Virus genome (UHGV): UHGV-0038492
DNA: 64,000 nucleotides
Origin: a virus
Reading direction: 5' to 3' (one strand)
Below, one piece after another: positions 11,517 to 32,284 of this stretch. The first letter of the stretch is position 1; each line of letters opens with the position of its first letter. The position numbers were made by a program, and so were the translations under genes. A model generated the notes under the pieces. The model was not told the DNA's origin, searched no databases, and worked only from the letters and a program-made list of their open reading frames with translations.

Positions 11517-12179
11517 ATGAGTCAAGAACCAGGAAAATTTAATGGGGTTCCTATTAATGAACTTTCTGGCCGCGCTAAATTCGAATACGATAAACTTCTG
11601 GAAATGGAGAGCGTACTCCAGCAAGGCCAGAATGTGTGCAGTGTTTTTACAGAATCGATGTTCCGTCGTCAAGGCTTACCTTTGTTGTCGGGGATGTTAG
11701 ACGGTACGTTTAACGAAGACACTTGGGTAGATTACGTCGGTAGCGCGTTTGTTCCGTTACAGATTGTTTCGGATGCTGACCATTCTAAACTGTTATTCAC
11801 TATCCCACCGTTGCTGAATACCGGTCGCTCTCTTCAACACGTTGAAGGTCAGCCCTCATTAACGGAGGAGACGGAAGCTATTCGCCAGACGGCCGATATC
11901 ATCTCCGAAGTGGGTGAGCAGCAGTTGCACCAGATGATCGATTACACGTTAGACGGCATCGAGAGACTGTCGTACGAAGAAAATGCACTGCGGGCAAAAA
12001 GAGTCATCGATCTCTTAAACTGGATTTTCCGTCGTTACCAAGTTAACGGTCAACTTCCTTATCCAGAAGGGTTGGAAGAACTTTGCAATCAGATTGAAGG
12101 TAAAAGTAAACCTGCTCAGGTTGTAGAGAAGAAACCTGAACCCGTTAAAACAAGACGTTTCGATGATTACGATTACTAA
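11517..12179 (+). CDS. hypothetical protein
   Basis: 220-aa ORF with RBS. Confidence 0.55.
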   Translation: MSQEPGKFNGVPINELSGRAKFEYDKLLEMESVLQQGQNVCSVFTESMFRRQGLPLLSGMLDGTFNEDTWVDYVGSAFVPLQIVSDADHSKLLFTIPPLLNTGRSLQHVEGQPSLTEETEAIRQTADIISEVGEQQLHQMIDYTLDGIERLSYEENALRAKRVIDLLNWIFRRYQVNGQLPYPEGLEELCNQIEGKSKPAQVVEKKPEPVKTRRFDDYDY

Positions 12180-13311
12180 TCCTCCGCCGAAACCTGCGGG
12201 CGTTAAACGTATCTTTTCAACAGGCGATGTACATCTCTTGCATCGCCGTGTACCGACGTGGCACATTGTTAATGTGTTGAAAGAGACGTTGGTGAAGTTT
12301 GAAAACACGATTGACGCTATTTATATAGCTGGTGATCTATTTGATGATTCCCGGCACTTGCGGCAGGAAGATTCTCAAGAAGCCATAGGGTTTTTAACTT
12401 GGTTGTTGTTCTGGGCTAAAAGCACCAATACGGCAATCCGTGTCCTGGAGGGAACACCGTCCCACGATCATAAACAGTCAAAAATTGTCGAGGAGCTGAA
12501 TTCAGCCGTTGGCGCAGATTGTTTGTATCTGGATAAGATTGGTGTTTTCTACGACGAGGCACTTGATGCTACGATTGGCTGGGTTCAGGACGAGTATAAA
12601 GCCCTAGGGTCGGAGACAATTGACGCCGCCGCAACGGAAAAGGAAATGGCTGAGCTTTTAGCCACGCGCGGTATAGAGCAGATGGACTTCTGCTTTATGC
12701 ATGGCTGTTTTCAGTTTCAAGTTCCTGTTGAGTCTACCCGTTTTTTCCACACTGATTTTTGGGAACCGTTAGTCAAGCATTTGATTATCATTCACCACGA
12801 TCATCGTCGAAAACAGTTGGGTAAGATTCGTGTACCAGGCAGTCCCGATCGTCTGGTAATGGGTGAAGAAGAGGACAAAGGCTTTGCTATTGTCGATTTC
12901 ACTCCTGAGTTGGCCAGAGATTATTTTCTGGTTAACGAACGCGCTTGCCCGCAAATAAAAATTGCGGCAGAAGAAGACTACGAATCGCAGTATGCGAAGT
13001 GTCTCAAGGCGTTAGAGTATATTGATACTCATCCGTCCTACGAGATAGGGCGGTTGGAAATTGAATATTATCCTGATTCTCCATTGGCCGAGGCCATTAC
13101 TAAATGGAAGTCGCAATATTCTTTCCATATTTCAGGCACGCGTATTCGTACGCCTGAAGAAGAGCAAGTTCTCGCAGCGGGTTTCGCTCTCGACGCTGAA
13201 GTCGAAGAAACTATCTCTGAAGAGAATGTTGAGTCGATTATGTTAGAAGCATTAGTGCCGTTTAAATACGATACACAAATTGTTACTGACATTATCAGGA
13301 GTATTAAATGA
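12163..13311 (+). CDS. SbcD/Mre11-like calcineurin-type phosphoesterase (putative nuclease)
   Basis: ordered motifs 'STGDVHL' (GDxH), 'AGDLFDD' (GDxxD), 'EGTPSHDH', 'MHGCF', 'HHDH'. Confidence 0.55.
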   Translation: MITITNPPPKPAGVKRIFSTGDVHLLHRRVPTWHIVNVLKETLVKFENTIDAIYIAGDLFDDSRHLRQEDSQEAIGFLTWLLFWAKSTNTAIRVLEGTPSHDHKQSKIVEELNSAVGADCLYLDKIGVFYDEALDATIGWVQDEYKALGSETIDAAATEKEMAELLATRGIEQMDFCFMHGCFQFQVPVESTRFFHTDFWEPLVKHLIIIHHDHRRKQLGKIRVPGSPDRLVMGEEEDKGFAIVDFTPELARDYFLVNERACPQIKIAAEEDYESQYAKCLKALEYIDTHPSYEIGRLEIEYYPDSPLAEAITKWKSQYSFHISGTRIRTPEEEQVLAAGFALDAEVEETISEENVESIMLEALVPFKYDTQIVTDIIRSIK

Positions 13312-14144
13312 CCCCAATCAGTGTTGATCGCACGTTTGGGTTTTATCAGATGTCAATTGCCACATCGTTGGCTTTTGAAGGGCTCCTCCATGAAGGAGAG
13401 TATGCCGACTGGAAGGGACCGATCCCTATCCACAAGTATCAGGAAATTTACCTGAATGTACGGACGCTGTTCCGTAACGCGTTTTACGCGTTTGAGACAA
13501 ATCGTGAAAGATTAACGCCTGAAGTGATGCTGGCATCGATTGAAGAAGATATCAATACTATCTACGCTACCGCGAAAGCGGTAGCGCCTTCGGTGCTATG
13601 TGTCCCTTATCTCTGTACGTACAAAAGTGCGAACAGAATCTTTCCCGAAGCGTCGTTCCGTACTATCGCAGGTGGGCAGGAAAAGATGACGCCTAACCAG
13701 TTACACTATAACGCGTTAGAACACGACACGTTAAAGTTGTACGGTGAAAAATATGCTGAGAAGTTCAAAAGCTTTGATGTATACCCGAAAGGGCAGCACG
13801 ACACGCTGATTTTAACCCATTACCCTGCCGACTTATTGGCCTACAAAGATTTCCCGTTACTGAATCTCTTAGAGTCGCACACGGGTAAGATTAAAGGCCG
13901 ATTAGAATGGTACACGAAACTAAACGGTAAACCCGAACAGATCCCGTTTAACAAAGCGTTCCTGACGTTATTTGGTGACGGGTATATGTTCGCTCCCCTG
14001 GACAGAAAAGTTCGTAAGGTGGTGTTAAATACCGCTGAAAAATATCACTGGCGACAAGACACGACGATGGATCGTATCTACAGTTGCTTAAAGTTGGTAA
14101 ACGAACCTTTCGTAATTGAGTTCCTTCACAGACTGGCTCGCTAA
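13308..14144 (+). CDS. hypothetical protein
   Basis: 278-aa ORF, GGAG upstream, start overlaps upstream stop. Confidence 0.55.
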   Translation: MTPISVDRTFGFYQMSIATSLAFEGLLHEGEYADWKGPIPIHKYQEIYLNVRTLFRNAFYAFETNRERLTPEVMLASIEEDINTIYATAKAVAPSVLCVPYLCTYKSANRIFPEASFRTIAGGQEKMTPNQLHYNALEHDTLKLYGEKYAEKFKSFDVYPKGQHDTLILTHYPADLLAYKDFPLLNLLESHTGKIKGRLEWYTKLNGKPEQIPFNKAFLTLFGDGYMFAPLDRKVRKVVLNTAEKYHWRQDTTMDRIYSCLKLVNEPFVIEFLHRLAR

Positions 14145-14202
14145 TTTTACAGAACGTTTTGTTAGTTTGAGCACTCCGAAAATGTAGAATAGGATAAAGT
14201 AA

Positions 14203-14844
14203 ATGGTTAACAAAAATTTCTTTAAAGAAAAATATCTTTACCCGCAAACCGAACCGGACCAGCAGGGCCGTACCCGTAAACTGGGTATTGAGCTTAACGA
14301 ATTCAACGGTGACGTTGAGCTGATGAAGTTCAGCTATTCTTTCGGTAAAGGCGAAGGTTTGTATTTTACTGCTGGCTATACCGTTTGTGTGGACATTTTC
14401 GAAACGCTCCGCACCGTGATGGTGAAACCAGAGAAAATCGTTTATAAATGGGAAGATGCTAAAGGGAAGAAATCGCCAGTTAGCCTGCACGTAGGCCGCG
14501 ATGAAAACCTGACGCCGTTCATGGCTATTAGCGGTGAGATCCCAGGGGTTGGCGCACGCCAGAAGAAATTCTACTTCACCTATCCGAAAGGTTATCGCGT
14601 ATTCCGTAATGGCCAACAGGTTTCTGATTTAGAACTGGCAGAACGTACTCTGCGTGCGTTTATTAAGAATGCTGATGTCTTCCTGGAAGATTTCCGTGAC
14701 AACTATAAACCTCGTGAGTTCAACAACACTGGTGGCGGTAGCTACGGTCGTGGTGGCTATAATAGCAACAACAACGGCGGTGGTTACAACCAGCAGGCAG
14801 CAAAAGCACCCGCACCAGACAGCAGTTTTGACGACATTATTTAA
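14203..14844 (+). CDS. hypothetical protein with Gly/Tyr/Asn-rich linker and acidic C-terminal tip; possible SSB-like protein
   Basis: strong RBS 'aggataaagtaaATG'; optimised codons; tail 'GGGSYGRGGYNSNNNGGGYNQQ...DSSFDDII' resembles SSB linker plus acidic tip. Confidence 0.55.
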   Translation: MVNKNFFKEKYLYPQTEPDQQGRTRKLGIELNEFNGDVELMKFSYSFGKGEGLYFTAGYTVCVDIFETLRTVMVKPEKIVYKWEDAKGKKSPVSLHVGRDENLTPFMAISGEIPGVGARQKKFYFTYPKGYRVFRNGQQVSDLELAERTLRAFIKNADVFLEDFRDNYKPREFNNTGGGSYGRGGYNSNNNGGGYNQQAAKAPAPDSSFDDII

Positions 14845-14863
14845 TTAACGTAAAAACAATAAT

Positions 14864-14895
14864 TCAGCCCCAGGGAATCCTGGGGCTTCTTATCG
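14864..14895 (+). terminator. hairpin terminator (weak T-tract)
   Basis: 'cagccccagggaatcctggggct'. Confidence 0.5.
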
Positions 14896-14921
14896 TGTAT
14901 GTGTGCAGAACACAGTCGAAG

Positions 14922-14958
14922 TTATCTTAGATAGATTTTATCTTTGTGGTCGACTATG
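14922..14958 (+). promoter_or_regulatory. phage promoter-like motif, copy 3
   Basis: 'ttatcttagatagattttatctttgtgg'. Confidence 0.4.
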
Positions 14959-14978
14959 TTATCCCTGGAGATTTTAAA

Positions 14979-16607
14979 ATGCGTATTGAGAAAAATCGCG
15001 ACCGTCTCATTATTAGTTACGGTGATAAGGAAGTAGGGTTTAACGGATTCCGTAATGGACGCAAAGATGCGAATGTGCCAGACGTACGCGATAGCTCCGG
15101 CAAAGTGGTTACCCATGACAAAATTATGTTCATGGAAATCGAACGTTATTGGTCAACGTTAACGTCGGAGGAAAAGGAAGAGTTATTCTCGGCGTACGAA
15201 GAGTTAGAAATGCTGGGTAATGAAGAACCCGAAACGATTCGTAAACATGCGCCAGAGATTGTTGCACAAATTGCCAAATTCCACCACGCGGACAGATTCC
15301 GCCAACTCTATCCACAAAGTTCCGTGTGGATTCCTCAAAACGTCCACGAAACTTACGAAGAAATGTCATCTAACTATCCGAAAGAGATGACGTATATCGT
15401 ACAAGACTACTACGAACTGGTCATACTGTCGCTGATGGTAAAACCGTTCATTCCGGTATTCTTGGTCATGGATGCTTTCCCGACAACACGCGCCGCTGTG
15501 GACTCTAAGCGGAAAAGCGTTTATAACTTAACCCATTGCATGGAATTGCTTTACGACACCGAGATAGCACAACTACCTGCAATCAGTAAATTGCGGGACT
15601 TCTTAGTGTCGGTGATTTCGAAAGTACAGGACGGTGGTAATAAAGGACCGAACAGTGCGAACTTAACGGTGCTGGCCTCTATCTGTGGTTACGGTACGGA
15701 TATGGTGGAAGAGTATATCATGGCATTCGCGGTGATTCGCTTAATCGCCATGAAACTCATCGGCGCAGAGTTACCTCCAGGCACGATGGTGGAGAACAAC
15801 ATCGTTGCGGGGATGTACTTTAATATCAAGCAGGAAATCGAAACAGGATTTGCAGGAAAGATTTCGTCACAGAACGTCATCTTAAAAGCGCATCCTGAAA
15901 AGATTATGTTTAACGGTGAGAAAGGGAAAACCTGTGCGATAGACTTGGTTCAGGCGCGTTCTAAAGCGCCAATGAAAGAGTTTGTTCGTACTCAAGAGTT
16001 TTTCAACGATTACCGTCGTGTGGTGCGTTCTTTAGGGATCGATATCGCCCCTGCGGATGCTAAGGTACTGATTGATTCTATTCACCTGAATCATCAATAT
16101 CCGTTCTACGAACTGTACGAGTGGCTGGTTGCAGCTGCACTGCATCGCTTTGCTGACCGCAGAACCTATAAGGACATTGACGCTGCTGCGTTTAAGAATG
16201 CAATGGGGATCGCACAAGCGATTTATATCTACTACGGAATGCATGAGATAGCACAGTTGCTAAGCTGTGAAATGGTCTTAGATCCCAATAACGGGGGCTA
16301 TCCAATCGAACCTATTGATAATGAGATCAAAATAAAATCGGATAGATTTTATCCTCAGGCATACCGTACCAATCGCAATATCTACGAACAGTCAACACTG
16401 AAGACGTCTTTGACGTTGTTGGTACGTGAACATATTGCACCGTTTAACTTCAATCTCAGGGCAACACCTGAAGCAGCAAGAATGCTTCGGAGTGGAGAAG
16501 TGATGTTAGGCTACACACCACACCCACGACTTCAGAACATGTTAGCAGAATTCCTGTTAATTCAGAACAGGAAGAAATGTGAAGAAGTGGCGTGGTTTAA
16601 TCAGTAA
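14979..16607 (+). CDS. hypothetical protein
   Basis: start moved to ATG (MRIEKN...) with GGAG 8 nt upstream; track start is 14946. Confidence 0.55.
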   Translation: MRIEKNRDRLIISYGDKEVGFNGFRNGRKDANVPDVRDSSGKVVTHDKIMFMEIERYWSTLTSEEKEELFSAYEELEMLGNEEPETIRKHAPEIVAQIAKFHHADRFRQLYPQSSVWIPQNVHETYEEMSSNYPKEMTYIVQDYYELVILSLMVKPFIPVFLVMDAFPTTRAAVDSKRKSVYNLTHCMELLYDTEIAQLPAISKLRDFLVSVISKVQDGGNKGPNSANLTVLASICGYGTDMVEEYIMAFAVIRLIAMKLIGAELPPGTMVENNIVAGMYFNIKQEIETGFAGKISSQNVILKAHPEKIMFNGEKGKTCAIDLVQARSKAPMKEFVRTQEFFNDYRRVVRSLGIDIAPADAKVLIDSIHLNHQYPFYELYEWLVAAALHRFADRRTYKDIDAAAFKNAMGIAQAIYIYYGMHEIAQLLSCEMVLDPNNGGYPIEPIDNEIKIKSDRFYPQAYRTNRNIYEQSTLKTSLTLLVREHIAPFNFNLRATPEAARMLRSGEVMLGYTPHPRLQNMLAEFLLIQNRKKCEEVAWFNQ

Positions 16608-16640: not shown

Positions 16641-18344
16641 ATGGCAATGAAACTTCTAAAGCTTCAAATCAACCCAGTGTACGAAATCCCTAAACAGATT
16701 CGTCGTCGTATTGGGTTCTTTGAATCTAAGTACGCTTTAGATGAACTCGTAAACGTTGTGGCGCAACATGGCGAGAATGCGACCAAGACTCGAGATTATC
16801 AAGAAGCGTTAGGGCAGATTGTAGGGTTTGATAATACTCCGACCGGTGTTGAATCTCCGCTGATTAACGTAAGCGATGATGAATCCCGTCCGGTACAATT
16901 CCAGTATAATTCCCGTGACACTGGCGTGTATAACTTCGTTGCGATTATCGTAGGTAACGTGATTAACGAATGTCGTACGCAAGAAACCCGTTATGTTGTC
17001 TCGGGTTATACCTCCCAGGCAGAGCGCTCCGTATTTAACCACCTGCCAGATGACATGGTGTTATACATCAATGAAATCTACGGCTTGCAGTGTACGTACA
17101 TTACCGATGCGTTCGGGGGACGTCGTATCAACCCAGATTCATTCCGTCTGGTTGATAACTACGTGCTGTCTAAAACATTGACAGCGGATAGCTACAGTGA
17201 GCACACTATCGATGCGATCTCTACTGCAAAAGCAGCATCCACGATTCGTAATCTGATTAACGCAGGTGAGAAGTTCACTTACGATGACCAAACGGTTATC
17301 TCTGCGAACTGTCAATCCGCACCGCAGCTGATGTCTGGTCAACTGACTCGTCCTGAGTCTTTCGTCACAGCGATTGCTAACTCTTTCATCAACACGATGG
17401 GGATTGAAACAGAACTGAGCACGGTAGACAGCTTCTTTGCAGGTGACCATTCTCTCGGTGTAGAATCCGAGCTGAACCAAATCGGGGTAATGCGCAATTT
17501 CAATAACTACGAACTGATCCGTGCTTTCCGTGCCGCGTTAACGAACGCGACGTCGGATGTGACTGGTGGTTGGAACGCAGTCAACCGCGCAGCGTTTAAG
17601 TTAGCTGATTTGCGTAACGCAATCATGAACCCGCAAGATTTGGATATTGCGATTTCGCAATCTCTAGCGGTAGCTGACCGCCGTGGTTTCGGTGAGATTG
17701 AACGTACCGATGATTGGGTAGGACGTAATAACTATTCTACCCAAGGTTCTCTGGTTGCGTTTGATTTGGCGATGGTACTCGGTCCAATCGTGTCCCGTAA
17801 CTTGATTGGTGAGATTACTTTCTTCTACGATAACCGCATGGCGGATATTTCCACGCAACCGATGCTGCAAGTTGCTCACCACACAGTCGGCGCGTTAACT
17901 GATGAAGGTTTGCCAGATGTATTAGCACGTCGTTTCATGAGCGATCTCCAGGGTTTGATGCTACAAGTGACCAAACACAACCGTATTCGTTGCTGCATGA
18001 CAGTAACTTGTATCGTTGGTGTGGTAACGCGCATTGAGATTGAACTCGATGGTGAGATGCCTGAGTATTACACCTTTGCATCGTTCATGAAAGCGCGTAT
18101 CCATAGTGGGGTGACAACTGATCTTAACTACACCAATCAGTTGGCTGTCGAAACGGCACAGCTGATGAATAAAGTAGAAGAAGGTTATCAGGAATTCAAC
18201 CGTGGACAAAACCGGACTAATATCCTGTCCAACATTCCTACGGCAGCGGCTGCGCCTACCAATAGCTTCGGTTCTTTCGGTAGCTTTGGTGCTCCTGACA
18301 ATACTTCCACCACAGGCGGTCTATTCGGCGCTTTCGGCGAGTAA
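16641..18344 (+). CDS. hypothetical protein with FG-rich C-terminal tail
   Basis: 567 aa; RBS 'aaaggag'; tail '...APTNSFGSFGSFGAPDNTSTTGGLFGAFGE'. Confidence 0.6.
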   Translation: MAMKLLKLQINPVYEIPKQIRRRIGFFESKYALDELVNVVAQHGENATKTRDYQEALGQIVGFDNTPTGVESPLINVSDDESRPVQFQYNSRDTGVYNFVAIIVGNVINECRTQETRYVVSGYTSQAERSVFNHLPDDMVLYINEIYGLQCTYITDAFGGRRINPDSFRLVDNYVLSKTLTADSYSEHTIDAISTAKAASTIRNLINAGEKFTYDDQTVISANCQSAPQLMSGQLTRPESFVTAIANSFINTMGIETELSTVDSFFAGDHSLGVESELNQIGVMRNFNNYELIRAFRAALTNATSDVTGGWNAVNRAAFKLADLRNAIMNPQDLDIAISQSLAVADRRGFGEIERTDDWVGRNNYSTQGSLVAFDLAMVLGPIVSRNLIGEITFFYDNRMADISTQPMLQVAHHTVGALTDEGLPDVLARRFMSDLQGLMLQVTKHNRIRCCMTVTCIVGVVTRIEIELDGEMPEYYTFASFMKARIHSGVTTDLNYTNQLAVETAQLMNKVEEGYQEFNRGQNRTNILSNIPTAAAAPTNSFGSFGSFGAPDNTSTTGGLFGAFGE

Positions 18345-18364: not shown

Positions 18365-19744
18365 ATGAAAATTATTGAATTCTATAAATCGTTTCTTAAA
18401 TCACAAGGATTCGATTTCGAGAACGATTTGCTTACCCGTGATGACGGTGAGCCAGCAGAATTTACCTACAACAAAGTGAAGCGCCGCCTGGCGCTTCCAA
18501 CGTCAGCAATGATTAAGAAAGGAATGGAAGATGACGACGGACGTGAATGTCAGGCATTCCATCCTCTCTGTGAATCTGTGCTGGCCGGTGAATCGGGCAC
18601 TATCCGTTTCTTGAAGAAATCCATCAATGCGAATTTGTTCATTCGTTCCTTTGCGTTGATTGACGCTATTCTGGAAACGGCTGCCAGTGGTAAAGCAATT
18701 CGTTCTGCGGCGTACAAGAAGTTCTTAACGGAACAGATTTGTGAAGGGATGAAAGATCCGACGTTTGACGATCGTTTGGTGAAATCCTGGGAAGCAGTTA
18801 AACAATACGTTTATGGCTTATTGGAGCGCGATAAAAAGCACAAAGTTACCCAGCTCTTTATTGCATCTGATTTAGTTATCGACGGTGTGAAGTTTAACCG
18901 TGTGGCTAATTATCGCCATATGTTCGAAGAAGAATCCTTAGATGGTACTGCAATGTACTTCTCGGTGAAGCTTCAACGTAAACAGGATAAGGTGATTATT
19001 CATCGTCTGCTGACCACTGTGTTCGGTTGGTATCCAAGTGTCACCGGTTCTAACGATTCCCGTCCGTACTTCGGGTCGTTAGCACGCGGTTGGGCACAGT
19101 ACGTGGTAAACTACAATAACGTAGTGAAAGGGTTACGTGACCACACACCACTGCGTCCGTTGGACGATGAATGGATTTCACAGCTGGACAACATGGAGAT
19201 TTACGATAATGTCATTCAGACCTTGCCGTATAACACCGGTCCACGTTCAGACAATCCTGAGCGTGATACCAGTGCCCGCGAGTTCAGAATTGACAGATCG
19301 TCGGCAACGGAACAGATCCCGACGAAGAAGGCGTCTGATGCGGATAAACCGAACCTGGACGATCCGGTAGAGTTCTTCCGTGCGCGTAAGCAACGGATGA
19401 CGCCGACAAACAGCTTCGGTAATCTTTCTCCAGCAATGCAGCGTTTTGTGGAAGAGCACAACACAACTAACCTGGCTGGTACAGGAATGGTAGGACGGAT
19501 TTCTGTAGTAGATGCTTTCGGTGGCGAGCGTAAGAGTAGTGGTTTTGGTGACGTAGGTGGATTCGGTCAACCGAACTCGTTGTCGAATACGTTTGGTGGT
19601 GGGCACTCTTTTGGCGGGGGTTCATCATTCGGAGGCAGCTCTTTCGGCAGCCAGCCTCAGTTTGGTTCGTCTAGCGGATTTGGTAGTAGTACAGGCAACC
19701 CATTTACCAGTGCTTCTACGAGTCCGTTTAAGAGCTCGTACTAA
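18365..19744 (+). CDS. hypothetical protein with long FG/GF/Ser-rich low-complexity tail
   Basis: 459 aa; tail 'SGFGDVGGFGQPNSLSNTFGGGHSFGGGSSFGGSSFGSQPQFGSSSGFGSS'; shares 'PTNSFG' with the upstream protein. Confidence 0.6.
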   Translation: MKIIEFYKSFLKSQGFDFENDLLTRDDGEPAEFTYNKVKRRLALPTSAMIKKGMEDDDGRECQAFHPLCESVLAGESGTIRFLKKSINANLFIRSFALIDAILETAASGKAIRSAAYKKFLTEQICEGMKDPTFDDRLVKSWEAVKQYVYGLLERDKKHKVTQLFIASDLVIDGVKFNRVANYRHMFEEESLDGTAMYFSVKLQRKQDKVIIHRLLTTVFGWYPSVTGSNDSRPYFGSLARGWAQYVVNYNNVVKGLRDHTPLRPLDDEWISQLDNMEIYDNVIQTLPYNTGPRSDNPERDTSAREFRIDRSSATEQIPTKKASDADKPNLDDPVEFFRARKQRMTPTNSFGNLSPAMQRFVEEHNTTNLAGTGMVGRISVVDAFGGERKSSGFGDVGGFGQPNSLSNTFGGGHSFGGGSSFGGSSFGSQPQFGSSSGFGSSTGNPFTSASTSPFKSSY

Positions 19745-19751
19745 GGTAGTA

Positions 19752-19783
19752 AAAAGAAGGGACAGTGTCCCTTCTTTTTTTAA
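19752..19783. terminator. bidirectional terminator between convergent genes
   Basis: 'agaagggacagtgtcccttct' followed by T-run. Confidence 0.65.
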
Positions 19784-20103
19784 TCGTCTACGATGGTGCT
19801 AAGAATACTGGCGACGACCCCGGCATCTGGAACTATCAGCTCTGTAATCTCAGGGGTGAAGTTCATAGGGTCTTCCAAGTTATTGAGCAGCATCATTGGG
19901 TAGATGATGTTTTCGGCATAACCTTTCAGTTTGCAGTAAGCGTAGAAATTGTGAATCTCAGGATAACTGAATCGTGGGTCTACAGTTTCTACTTTAGTTT
20001 GTGGGTGTTTACGCAGAAAATCTGTGTAATCGTGCAGCACTTTCCAGGTGCTGGTATAGGGCGCAGGTATGATTTCTTTTAGGGTAATAAAATCTTCAAG
20101 CAT
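19780..20103 (-). CDS. hypothetical protein
   Basis: 107-aa minus-strand ORF with AGGAA upstream of ATG. Confidence 0.5.
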   Translation of the reverse strand: MLEDFITLKEIIPAPYTSTWKVLHDYTDFLRKHPQTKVETVDPRFSYPEIHNFYAYCKLKGYAENIIYPMMLLNNLEDPMNFTPEITELIVPDAGVVASILSTIVDD

Positions 20104-24548: not shown

Positions 24549-26258
24549 ATGTACGAATTCCACATGACCTTTACCAGCATGGGGGTGAGGGTTGAAGTCC
24601 CGTGCCGACAGATAGAGTCGGCGATACTTAAGTGGGCAGAAGAACATATGCACGCTCCTAAGATGGGCAAGCAATACGGTCGTATATTCACTGAACGTGG
24701 CGATCCGTATTACGCGCATATACCTTCTCTCCGCTCGTTTATCTTCCACAGGAACTTTTCTGAGCGTTTACGCATTATTATTAATCGTACGGCAACCGAA
24801 TTTGGTATTGAGTATAAGCTCTACGAGCATTACTTAACGCAGGGAACACCTTATAGGTGTAAGTTTGAAAACTACGGCTTTAAGATGGTGGAGGACGATG
24901 AGAAATCACGTTTCTTTTACCAGAACGCTGTGGTTGAAACGGCTTGCGAACCAAATCGTTTTCAAACCATCTTTGAAATTGGTACAGGGATGGGTAAGTC
25001 GAAAACGAACATGAAAGTAATGGTACGTAAGGGTGTCAGGACGCTACTGATTCACCGTCCGACGTACATCTCAAAATGGTTGTTTGATTTAACTGAAGAC
25101 CCAACGGGCTTACGTGAGTCGAAAGACGACGTTTTGGTTATCCAAGGCGTTCAGGCTATCTACGAAGCGTTAGAAATGGGGGAATCAGGCGAATTAGACA
25201 AACGTGGGATTAAGGTTATCATTATCTCAACGGTAACGTTGCAACGATTCCTTAAAGAGTACATTAACACTGCCGCAACTAACCCAGTGAACATTGATGA
25301 TTTCTACAACACCTTAGGTGTTGGGTTTTTGTCAATGGATGAAGTGCACGAGCATTTCCATCTGGTGTACATGGCAGGGATAATGCTCAACCCGCCACCG
25401 TCTGTTGAGATGTCTGCGACGTTACAGCCGGGTGAATCAAAAGCGTTTTTAGCCGAACGGTATCGAGAGCGTTTTCCACAAGAGTCACGTATATTCATTC
25501 CGATTATTCCTGCTGTGCACGTTAAAGCGTTGTACTACAGCATTGAGAATAAACGGTTTGCGTGGTGGGCGAATAAGATGACGCCGTATAATCACAAACT
25601 ATTCGAAGGTAAGTTAATAAGTGAGAACATGCACTTATCTTACGCGGATATGGTGTGGGACGTCATCGAGCGAACGTATCTGGCGAGTTACCAGCCTGGT
25701 CAGAAAGTGTTGGCGCTGTTTGCAACCGTTGCGATGTGTGAGTTCTTTACAGAGTACGTGCGAGAGAAACTGGCACAGTCTGATAAGTTCCACGCCCTGA
25801 TGGTTGCGAAATACAACGCGGGGGATTCGTATGACGACTTTATTCAAGCGGATTTCTCGATTTCAACACCAGGGAAAGCAGGCACTGCGGTCGACAAACC
25901 GGGGTTGGTTCACATGTACATTACCACCCCTGTGGAAGACCAGCAGTTAAACCGTCAGATGGCCGGTCGTCCGCGTAAGATACTTCACAACGATTGGGGT
26001 GAACTCGATCCCGTTGTGTGGTTATTCCATTCACTCTCGATAGGGAAACACTGCAATTACTTGAACGCGCGTCAGAAGTCGCTGAGTGATTCCGTGTTGT
26101 CGTTTAAGATAGCCTCTTCACCGTATGTTGTAAGGAAAACCAATGTTACTACCGCCGCAGCCGACCGAGCCAACAGCACCGTATGCCGGGCTGAACTTAG
26201 CAAGTTTTCTCGAAAAGGTTTTAAAGGCATACCCAGACGTCGAAAACGTCGTCGATAA
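24549..26258 (+). CDS. superfamily-2 DExH-box helicase/ATPase
   Basis: motif I 'GTGMGKSKT'; motif II 'SMDEVHEH'. Confidence 0.6.
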   Translation: MYEFHMTFTSMGVRVEVPCRQIESAILKWAEEHMHAPKMGKQYGRIFTERGDPYYAHIPSLRSFIFHRNFSERLRIIINRTATEFGIEYKLYEHYLTQGTPYRCKFENYGFKMVEDDEKSRFFYQNAVVETACEPNRFQTIFEIGTGMGKSKTNMKVMVRKGVRTLLIHRPTYISKWLFDLTEDPTGLRESKDDVLVIQGVQAIYEALEMGESGELDKRGIKVIIISTVTLQRFLKEYINTAATNPVNIDDFYNTLGVGFLSMDEVHEHFHLVYMAGIMLNPPPSVEMSATLQPGESKAFLAERYRERFPQESRIFIPIIPAVHVKALYYSIENKRFAWWANKMTPYNHKLFEGKLISENMHLSYADMVWDVIERTYLASYQPGQKVLALFATVAMCEFFTEYVREKLAQSDKFHALMVAKYNAGDSYDDFIQADFSISTPGKAGTAVDKPGLVHMYITTPVEDQQLNRQMAGRPRKILHNDWGELDPVVWLFHSLSIGKHCNYLNARQKSLSDSVLSFKIASSPYVVRKTNVTTAAADRANSTVCRAELSKFSRKGFKGIPRRRKRRR

Positions 26259-26587: not shown

Positions 26588-27160
26588 ATGTCACGTCGTA
26601 AGAAGAAACCCGCTTATAACCCGCGTACTCTGGCGAAAAAAGAACTTCGCGATAGCGTGAAATCAGTGTATAAACTACTGGTTATCTTTGAAGAACAGAT
26701 GAAGATTCTGGCGGAGCGTATCGACAAAGAACGTGAAGTCCTGGAAGCTCTGGAGGAGCCAGAATACAAAGCCTTTGCTATTAAAGCGTTGGACGAAGCC
26801 AAAGCTGCGTTTGTTGGCCTGATGGCAGAAGGGAAAGAAAAACTGGGTGCAAAACTTATTGAGATCGATAAGGTTGCAACCAATGCAAAAACCATGCTGG
26901 AAAACAACAGCTGGGCGTCTGTGAAAGACGAGTTTAGCGTGGAAAGCATGAACGTAACCACGTTAGAGACCGAAGCTGTGTGGCTGGGTAAAGATATCCA
27001 GGGCGCTGCCATTGAAATCCTGTCGCTGTATAATGGCCGCGCTGATTTTGTAAAACGTGCTATGCACCAGGGTCACACCTTCGCAGAAGCCTACGAACTG
27101 CTTCAACAAGCTGAAGCCGCAGTAAAACAACCCGACACTGAAGTCGTTACCGAGGTATAA
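26588..27160 (+). CDS. hypothetical protein, coiled-coil-like
   Basis: 190 aa; strong RBS; optimised codons (132-aa antisense open frame). Confidence 0.6.
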   Translation: MSRRKKKPAYNPRTLAKKELRDSVKSVYKLLVIFEEQMKILAERIDKEREVLEALEEPEYKAFAIKALDEAKAAFVGLMAEGKEKLGAKLIEIDKVATNAKTMLENNSWASVKDEFSVESMNVTTLETEAVWLGKDIQGAAIEILSLYNGRADFVKRAMHQGHTFAEAYELLQQAEAAVKQPDTEVVTEV

Positions 27161-31774: not shown

Positions 31775-32284
31775 ATGGCAACCAAAGACATTTCTACCCA
31801 AGATGCTCGTCCTGCTGCTGTTAAGCGCTCCGCAGAAGCGGCAGTAGCTTATAGCCAAGATGACTCTTATCAGGTAAACCTTATTGCTGCGCAGTTAGAC
31901 GAAGCAGGGAATACCATCGGCACCAACAAACCGAAAAATACGTCGGAAGCAGATGACGCTTTCCGTAAACTGCATCAGTCTTTCCGTAGCCTGTTTGAAC
32001 TGCGCGGTCAAGCGTTTATCGACGCTTTTAACGTTTTCGTTGCTGCTGCGATTAAACACAAGCGTAGCATCTTCTATTACCCGAATGTGAACTACCACCT
32101 GGATTGGTTCCACGATTCTGCTGAACGTGAAACTTACGTGGTGTTTATCAACATGCTGGTACGTTTTGCTAACTCTCAAGATAAAGCAAACTTCGCACAG
32201 CGTGACAACGTTAACCGTCTGCTGCAACGCGTAACTGACCCAGAACTGCAACAGCTGCTGGCGTACTGCTTCAACGCGGCTTAA
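31775..32284 (+). CDS. hypothetical protein
   Basis: 169 aa; RBS 'aaggattattagtaATG'; optimised codons. Confidence 0.6.
   Translation: MATKDISTQDARPAAVKRSAEAAVAYSQDDSYQVNLIAAQLDEAGNTIGTNKPKNTSEADDAFRKLHQSFRSLFELRGQAFIDAFNVFVAAAIKHKRSIFYYPNVNYHLDWFHDSAERETYVVFINMLVRFANSQDKANFAQRDNVNRLLQRVTDPELQQLLAYCFNAA

Follow-up and report, generated by a model that had tools for sequence, protein, structure and literature searches.

The window analysed here is a stretch of 64,000 nucleotides from the UHGV virus genome UHGV-0038492, and the gene in question lies on its + strand (Table 1); an earlier note, made from the letters alone, had read the product as a highly expressed protein, possibly like an SSB, a protein that binds single-stranded DNA. 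The genes around it run in the order SbcD-like nuclease (phrog_100), phrog_3229, phrog_3284 (the gene itself), phrog_3209, phrog_3141 and phrog_3520, followed by a small gene on the reverse strand and then the RNA polymerase beta genes. In PhiKZ, gp65 to gp70 carry identical PHROGs in identical order, with five consecutive genes (3229, 3284, 3209, 3141 and 3520) matching gp66 to gp70, and PhiPA3 and Goslar have the same layout of this block. The immediate neighbours encode a PhiKZ gp66-like protein and a non-virion RNA polymerase (nvRNAP) subunit. Moreover, imp1 is co-located and colinear with the ChmC gene in every genome examined. We conclude that the gene is very probably the ChmC/Imp6 gene of a nucleus-forming jumbo phage that had not been deposited before (Chimalliviridae, Erskinevirus/Seoulvirus-like).

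We consider the protein a ChmC/Imp6 orthologue because it belongs to the same PHROG, aligns as a profile without its tail and occupies the same slot in the colinear block. A PHROGs search assigned the window protein to phrog_3284 over its full length (E 1.1e-50), and PhiKZ gp67 falls into the same PHROG 3284 (E 6e-80). Profiles of 18 window-clade sequences and of 36 sequences recruited by the ChmC proteins of PhiKZ, PhiPA3 and Goslar, both with the low-complexity tails removed, aligned end to end (hhalign 99.3%, E 2.7e-19; residues 1-166 against 1-184), and the alignment of ten homologues reached 95.5% in hhalign against PhiKZ gp67 alone. By sequence comparison, the protein adds one more member to a known family and is an orthologue of PhiPA3 gp61, PhiKZ gp67 and Goslar gp176. 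With these and 201phi2-1 gp123, the ChmC/Imp6 proteins of Chimalliviridae, it shares PHROG 3284, a Whirly-type fold, a disordered, N/G-rich tail with an acidic end, the slot between the gp66-like and nvRNAP gp68-like genes two genes upstream of imp1/picA, a chimallin-encoding phage and a codon usage suggestive of high expression. Since this core protein of nucleus-forming jumbo phages had been characterised before, in its orthologues, the identification as such is routine annotation.

The relatives of the gene point to the same group of phages. A tblastn search of phage genomes returned 62 records, all of them jumbo phages of ~220-250 kb (best identity 72.7%), with hosts in Erwinia, Salmonella, Escherichia, Cronobacter and Proteus (phiEaH2, Stratton, Asesino and SPN3US, for example), and every match was annotated 'hypothetical protein'. 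Megablast of the 20 kb around the gene gave patchy matches only, at ~72% identity. The exact protein was found on 18 contigs that Logan had assembled from unrelated sequencing runs; the phage is present in public reads and absent from the phage collection searched. The window also encodes a major head protein of the PhiKZ type and, upstream, the divergent family-B DNA polymerase typical of the group (PF20286).

The chimallin (ChmA) orthologue of the window was identified through Asesino gp39, because neither BLASTP nor thin-profile hhalign against PhiKZ gp54 gave anything significant; a PDB sequence search also returned nothing. Asesino gp39 tagged with green fluorescent protein forms a nuclear shell ring (PMC11724907). 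The window orthologue falls into phrog_8316 ('unknown function'), separate from PHROG 4795, which holds the PhiKZ 'nuclear shell protein'. It exemplifies the strong divergence of ChmA, a protein that automated annotation overlooks in this clade.

Several observations weigh against the ChmC/Imp6 assignment. BLASTP of the window protein against PhiKZ gp67 was not significant, so that profiles were needed for this link, and the globular domain is only ~15% identical to those of the characterised orthologues. The tail measures ~41 aa, against 50-70 aa in characterised ChmC, and the tip reads FDDII, unlike the PhiKZ-type D-D-[D/E]-[I/L/M]-P-x-F. Among the residues mutated in PhiPA3 ChmC (K30, K48, K59, R35, R44 and R63), only K30 aligns with a basic position (R25/K26), in a low-confidence part of the alignment. 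Finally, the published mechanism of the family may be export, import or both.

Table 1. Coordinates of the gene, its parts and other features of the window
Feature	Coordinates	Strand	Basis or remark
Coding sequence, 213 aa, 24.2 kDa, ChmC/Imp6 orthologue (PHROG 3284)	14203..14844	+	Open reading frame, phrog_3284, hhalign
Shine-Dalgarno core AGGA, 4 nt, 8-nt spacer to ATG	14191..14194	+	Sequence read directly
N-terminal segment, residues 1-25; clade-invariant L12, P14, T16-E17-P18-D19	14203..14277	+	Ten-homologue alignment
Whirly/PUR-like nucleic-acid-binding domain (predicted), residues ~26-167	14278..14703	+	
Motif region, residues 48-55, part of SFGKGEGLYF	14344..14367		
Disordered Gly/Asn/Tyr/Gln-rich linker, residues 173-204	14719..14814	+	Composition, pLDDT
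Acidic tip PDSSFDDII, residues 205-213	14815..14841	+	Alignments, C-terminus survey
GC-rich hairpin, 9-bp stem, 7 GC pairs, 21 nt past the stop codon	14866..14887	+	Folding
SbcD-like nuclease, two genes upstream	12163..13311		PHROG 100
Helicase, ~10 kb downstream	24549..26258		
Imp1/PicA orthologue (PhiKZ gp69), 567 aa, two genes downstream	16641..18344	+	phrog_3141 for both proteins
Chimallin (ChmA) orthologue, 612 aa	6583..8421	+	tblastn, 58% identical to Asesino gp39 (ASESINO_39)
FG/GF tail of the open reading frame 16641..18344	18185..18341		'NSFGSFGSFGAP...GGLFGAFGE'
FG/GF tail of the open reading frame 18365..19744 (gp70 orthologue)	19540..19741		'GFGDVGGFGQ...SFGGGSSFGGSSFGSQPQFGSSSGFGSS'

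An AlphaFold2 model made from ten homologues (mean predicted local distance difference test score, pLDDT, 76.8; 97 residues at 90 or above) predicts that the fold is of the Whirly/PUR type, with two repeats of beta-sheet plus helix. In the model, the first repeat comprises strands 28-34, 37-48 and 51-57 and helix 59-74, and the second comprises strands 79-85, 93-99, 105-113 and 117-124 and helix 142-167. The top Foldseek matches were WHY2, PURA and SsgB, and the best BFVD matches were uncharacterised jumbo-phage proteins, including those of Pseudomonas phage EL and the Klebsiella phages Eowyn and Miami. A Pfam scan gave no family at E up to 10, and a PDB sequence profile search gave only non-significant matches (RbmA best, E 0.55; TetR). 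Identity to members of the Whirly/PUR/MRP superfamily (StWhy2 3N1H, PBF-2 p24 1L3A, T. brucei MRP1/MRP2 2GIA and Pur-alpha 3K44) is 6-9%, a structural similarity only and not proof of common ancestry. The first repeat has three strands where these proteins have four; they also lack an SSB-like Gly-rich tail with an acidic tip, and their contexts, plant organelles and kinetoplastid RNA editing, differ.

Basic residues conserved in the clade (K42, K49, R99, K121 and K122, from the ten-homologue alignment and the model) lie on or beside the strands, and the globular part has an isoelectric point of 9.0, in contrast to the acidic tip. The N-terminal segment, with pLDDT of ~61 for residues 1-10 and ~89 for residues 11-20, may make a contact within the tetramer or with a partner. 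Where strand 2 turns into strand 3 lies the clade-invariant F47-x-K49-G50-E51-G52, which bears a loose resemblance to the motif KGKAAL found in plant Whirly proteins. The single echo in sequence searches was the non-significant match to Vibrio RbmA (E 0.55).

The orthologues PhiPA3 gp61, PhiKZ gp67 and Goslar gp176 were described as ChmC in 2024: a Whirly fold, then a disordered tail rich in N and G, then an acidic end (Enustun et al. 2024, PMC11077065). ChmA and ChmC are the most abundant non-structural proteins, and PhiPA3 ChmC is a stable homotetramer by size-exclusion chromatography with multi-angle light scattering (PMC11077065). PhiPA3 ChmC binds single-stranded RNA (ssRNA) with a dissociation constant (Kd) of 58 nM and single-stranded DNA (ssDNA) with a Kd of 184 nM via basic residues of the sheet, and forms RNA-stimulated condensates that require the C-terminal tail, on which its shell localisation also depends (PMC11077065). 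In enhanced crosslinking and immunoprecipitation (eCLIP), ChmC crosslinks to phage mRNAs, and upon its knock-down mRNAs accumulate in the nucleus, phage protein falls and plaquing drops (PMC11077065). PhiKZ gp67 was described separately as Imp6, which binds directly to the import factor Imp1/PicA (gp69), at ~2:1 (bioRxiv 10.1101/2024.03.27.586873). Reviews place ChmC/Imp6 under mRNA export and cargo-dependent import. The published roles are therefore mRNA handling or export and protein import at the phage nuclear shell, not replication. As to the earlier suggestion of an SSB-like protein, the ssDNA binding of the PhiPA3 orthologue and the SSB-like tail speak for it, whereas the Whirly fold and the published roles speak against it.

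By analogy with these orthologues, the window protein would be synthesised early and abundantly and would assemble into a homotetramer, whose basic beta-sheet face may bind single-stranded nucleic acids non-specifically, with RNA preferred over DNA. The multivalent low-complexity tail would drive condensates and concentrate the protein at the chimallin shell, where it may bind the Imp1/PicA orthologue encoded two genes downstream. In this way it would help mRNA to leave the phage nucleus and proteins to enter it. By analogy with tails of the SSB type, the acidic tip most likely would either fold back on the basic nucleic-acid-binding face, as an autoinhibition that promotes condensates, or dock on a partner protein.

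The resemblance to SSB is one of architecture. The C-terminal sequence quoted in the earlier note ('...GGGSYGRGGYNSNNNGGGYNQQAAKAPAPDSSFDDII') is present in the translation of the open reading frame (ORF). Residues 173-213 have pLDDT below 50; the linker holds 9 G, 7 N and 3 Y in its 32 residues (G 28%, N 22%) and contains the conserved RGG- or [G/S]Y[G/S]-like element GGGxYG[RK]GGY, with conserved G177, G179, G184, G185 and Y186. The tip has three acidic and no basic residues. Both the tail composition and the tip are kept down to 39% globular identity, which argues that the tail is not chance low complexity. Among the 18 representatives of the window clade, the tip follows [F/Y] (14/18), D (15/18; D210 here), [D/E/S], [F/M/I/L], [I/F/L] and is proline-less, and all 18 have at least two acidic and no basic residues in the last eight. 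When a linker of at least 60% G/N/Q/S/Y and an acidic tip with a hydrophobic last residue were looked for together in the window and the whole SPN3US genome, the ChmC gene and its orthologue were the only ORFs to combine them.

A survey of C-termini extended this design to the family; its 66 members comprised the named phage proteins and one representative for each cluster at 50% identity. Almost all of the 66 have a G/N/Q/S/Y-rich stretch (mean 74% over positions -50 to -10) and, after it, an acidic end without basic residues. In the PhiKZ-like half (n=48), the last six positions are D (25/48), D (27/48), D (32/48), I/L/F (33/48), P (24/48) and F (25/48), and 24 of the 48 representatives end in [ILFVM]-P-(x)-[FMWYL]. 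At the level of sequence, this consensus, DDD[I/L]PF, is the bacterial SSB-Ct hexapeptide (motif as defined in PMC5872125). The strict form D[DE][DE][ILFV]P[FMWYL]$ ends 9 of 67 family sequences and none of the 795 ORFs of SPN3US and the window. Two representatives (P0029 and P0033) end in DFDDDIPF, like the last eight residues of E. coli SSB. In Smith-Waterman comparison with the E. coli SSB tail, scored against shuffles, the window tail reached z 1.5, which is not significant, the SPN3US tail z 3.5 and P0033 z 5.8. Tail-only PDB searches returned nothing for the window tail; for a PhiKZ-type tail they returned only the tail of a Coxiella SSB and an RPA70-BLM fusion, whose E values of 1.4 and 2 give no evidence of homology. 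The SSB-like linker and acidic tip described earlier thus stand as an architecture; the window protein has no canonical SSB-Ct (FDDII), and its similarity to the E. coli SSB tail is compositional only.

The ChmC family and E. coli SSB resemble each other beyond the tip: both are tetrameric binders of single-stranded nucleic acids in which a disordered, Gly-rich linker, variable in length, leads to a short conserved acidic tip with a hydrophobic last residue, and both condense in a linker-dependent manner. For E. coli SSB, a tetramer, the tip binds partner proteins and the protein's own OB fold, and condensation is linker-dependent and tip-enhanced (PMC7584906; PMC10018359). In contrast to E. 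coli SSB, the ChmC family has a Whirly domain instead of an OB fold, its globular part has no sequence homology to SSB and its orthologues prefer RNA; the window protein also differs in a tip without Pro-Phe. Acidic C-terminal tails ending in hydrophobic residues are likewise found in the abundant early proteins T4 gp32 and T7 gp2.5, where the tail autoinhibits DNA binding and recruits replication proteins. These proteins differ from ChmC in their OB folds, in having no long Gly/Asn-rich linker and in their roles in replication and recombination. The Enterobacterales and Pseudomonas hosts, as a rule, carry DDDIPF on their own SSB. Since the phage tips vary by clade although the hosts share this ending, the pattern fits a tip that co-evolves with a partner from the phage, or one that acts within its own molecule, better than simple mimicry of the host SSB.

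These likenesses raise the possibility of a replicative or recombination SSB analogue, in which the Whirly tetramer would coat phage ssDNA in the nucleus and the tail would serve as a hub for replication and repair proteins, so providing an SSB that these phages otherwise appear to be without. This is compatible with the ChmC/Imp6 roles, yet we consider it unlikely. PhiPA3 ChmC binds ssDNA at the Kd given above with a Hill coefficient of 2.4, a cooperativity above that for RNA; proximity labelling that started from UvsX, the nuclear recombinase, picked up ChmC; the Goslar protein forms puncta inside the nucleus; and ssDNA is bound by the plant Whirly proteins, which are the nearest relatives in structure (PMC11077065). 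The combination of tetramer, Gly-rich linker, acidic tip and condensates parallels E. coli SSB (PMC7584906), as do the family consensus DDD[IL]PF and the two DFDDDIPF endings. Moreover, the 266-feature RefSeq record of SPN3US names no SSB product, a phmmer search of the SPN3US ORFs with E. coli SSB gave nothing significant and ranked the ChmC orthologue top, via its tail, and a classic OB-fold SSB is listed for group 2 jumbo phages and not for the PhiKZ group (PMC7824862). However, this absence is based on annotation and a low-sensitivity search, and the annotation of Salmonella phage 1252, read for an SSB, was uninformative. The orthologues prefer RNA, crosslink to mRNAs and reside mostly at the shell and in the cytoplasm, and knock-down of ChmC traps mRNA in the nucleus (PMC11077065). 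Furthermore, gp67 binds the import factor Imp1, and the window protein itself has the non-canonical tip FDDII and a tail at z 1.5 against E. coli SSB. We therefore put forward only tentatively that ChmC/Imp6 may be a convergent SSB analogue with a Whirly fold, the missing SSB or hub of the phage nucleus, with the proline-less tip of the window clade matched to its partners. If so, the tip would recruit phage replication, recombination or import-cargo proteins, or capture host SSB-interacting proteins.

It is more doubtful still that the protein is a protein-import adaptor (Imp6) at the shell whose nucleic-acid binding is incidental and whose tail and tip only dock on Imp1/PicA or chimallin. 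The stable ~2:1 complex of PhiKZ gp67 with Imp1, the loss of PhiPA3 shell localisation upon deletion of the C-terminal tail (PMC11077065) and the colinearity of imp1 with the ChmC gene are consistent with such an adaptor, and clade-specific tips would be expected under co-evolution with a phage partner. On the other hand, RNA-binding mutants alter localisation, eCLIP detects mRNA binding and knock-down causes defects in mRNA localisation (PMC11077065); the conserved basic residues lie on beta-strands; and Imp6 came from a pull-down and was not recovered in genetic import selections (bioRxiv 10.1101/2024.03.27.586873). A canonical OB-fold SSB of the bacterial, T4 gp32 or T7 gp2.5 type, which only the tail architecture and the high-expression signals would favour, is scarcely credible and is ruled out by the predicted Whirly-type fold: no Pfam or significant PDB sequence match was obtained in the searches above (up to E 10 for Pfam; best PDB match RbmA, E 0.55), phmmer with E. 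coli SSB gave E 2.1, and the structure prediction that the earlier note had proposed as a check for an OB fold yielded a Whirly-type model, so that the OB-fold reading fails by that note's own test because no OB-fold SSB is among the matches listed.

We return to the ChmC/Imp6 gene itself, whose ATG start is supported because the ten homologues are conserved from M1. Its Shine-Dalgarno core is comparable to the ribosome-binding sites of many other window genes; since such 4-nt cores are common there, the 'strong' site claimed earlier was an overstatement. The codon adaptation index (CAI), computed with weights for highly expressed E. coli genes (Sharp & Li 1987), is 0.515, rank 5 of 47 window ORFs (z = +1.5). 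The four that lie above it are the major head protein (0.710), an internal head protein (0.688), the ChmA orthologue (0.654) and a 169-aa protein (0.579). The description of the codons as optimised is fair in relative terms, and the index, as a proxy, suggests high expression. A CAI close to those of ChmA and the head proteins suggests a fit with the reported abundance of ChmA and ChmC (PMC11077065). The hairpin downstream of the gene has a minimum free energy of -19.7 kcal/mol (z -4.37; 0 of 200 shuffles equally stable) and is terminator-like, but its T tract on the + strand is weak. A sigma-70 promoter scan around the gene gave chance level, visual comparison of upstream regions revealed no obvious shared phage promoter motif, and Rfam had no match in 13500..15500. 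The overlapping ORFs 13948..14616 (- strand) and 14654..14848 (+2 frame) had no family match and were treated as shadow ORFs. Two small proteins have an unusually high CAI, the 169-aa protein just named (31775..32284, 0.579, phrog_7825) and that of 26588..27160 (0.472, 190 aa), the latter with the acidic C-terminus '...PDTEVVTEV'; their codon usage suggests that they may be further abundant non-structural or virion proteins.

With regard to the neighbourhood, the earlier placing of the gene beside nuclease and helicase genes needs softening: the nuclease gene is two genes away, upstream, and the helicase gene lies ~10 kb downstream. The nvRNAP gp68-like ORF 14946..16607 has a mechanical start at GTG 14946, and ATG 14979, preceded by GGAG, is probably the real start; on each of four independent contigs, the product called from 14979 has 542 aa. 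A conserved gene for a 107-aa protein (19780..20103, - strand, phrog_3455) lies between the gp70-like and RNA polymerase beta genes, and Goslar gp172 has the same place and orientation. The gp69 (Imp1/PicA) and gp70 orthologues both end in low-complexity tails of FG/GF repeats, which recall the FG repeats of nucleoporins. In the same place, SPN3US has LG repeats and PhiKZ gp70 and PhiPA3 gp64 have Met/Gln/Pro-rich tails, so a hydrophobic-Gly or hydrophobic-Gln low-complexity tail is conserved in kind and not in sequence. Our literature search found no paper combining nucleoporin, phage nucleus and PicA.

Taken together, the assignment gives a name to a 'hypothetical protein' of the SPN3US, phiEaH2 and Asesino clade and of the present phage. 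The ChmC paper describes the C-terminus as an N/G-rich region with an 'electronegative cluster' and never mentions SSB (PMC11077065), and our literature search found no paper linking ChmC to SSB; the SSB-Ct-type tip and the SSB-like design of the ChmC family are thus an element for which we found no earlier report. This tail bears on the way in which ChmC/Imp6 connects the binding of RNA with its place at the shell and with protein import, and it raises the questions of whether phages without a recognised SSB use ChmC on ssDNA and whether the tip hijacks the partners of the host SSB.

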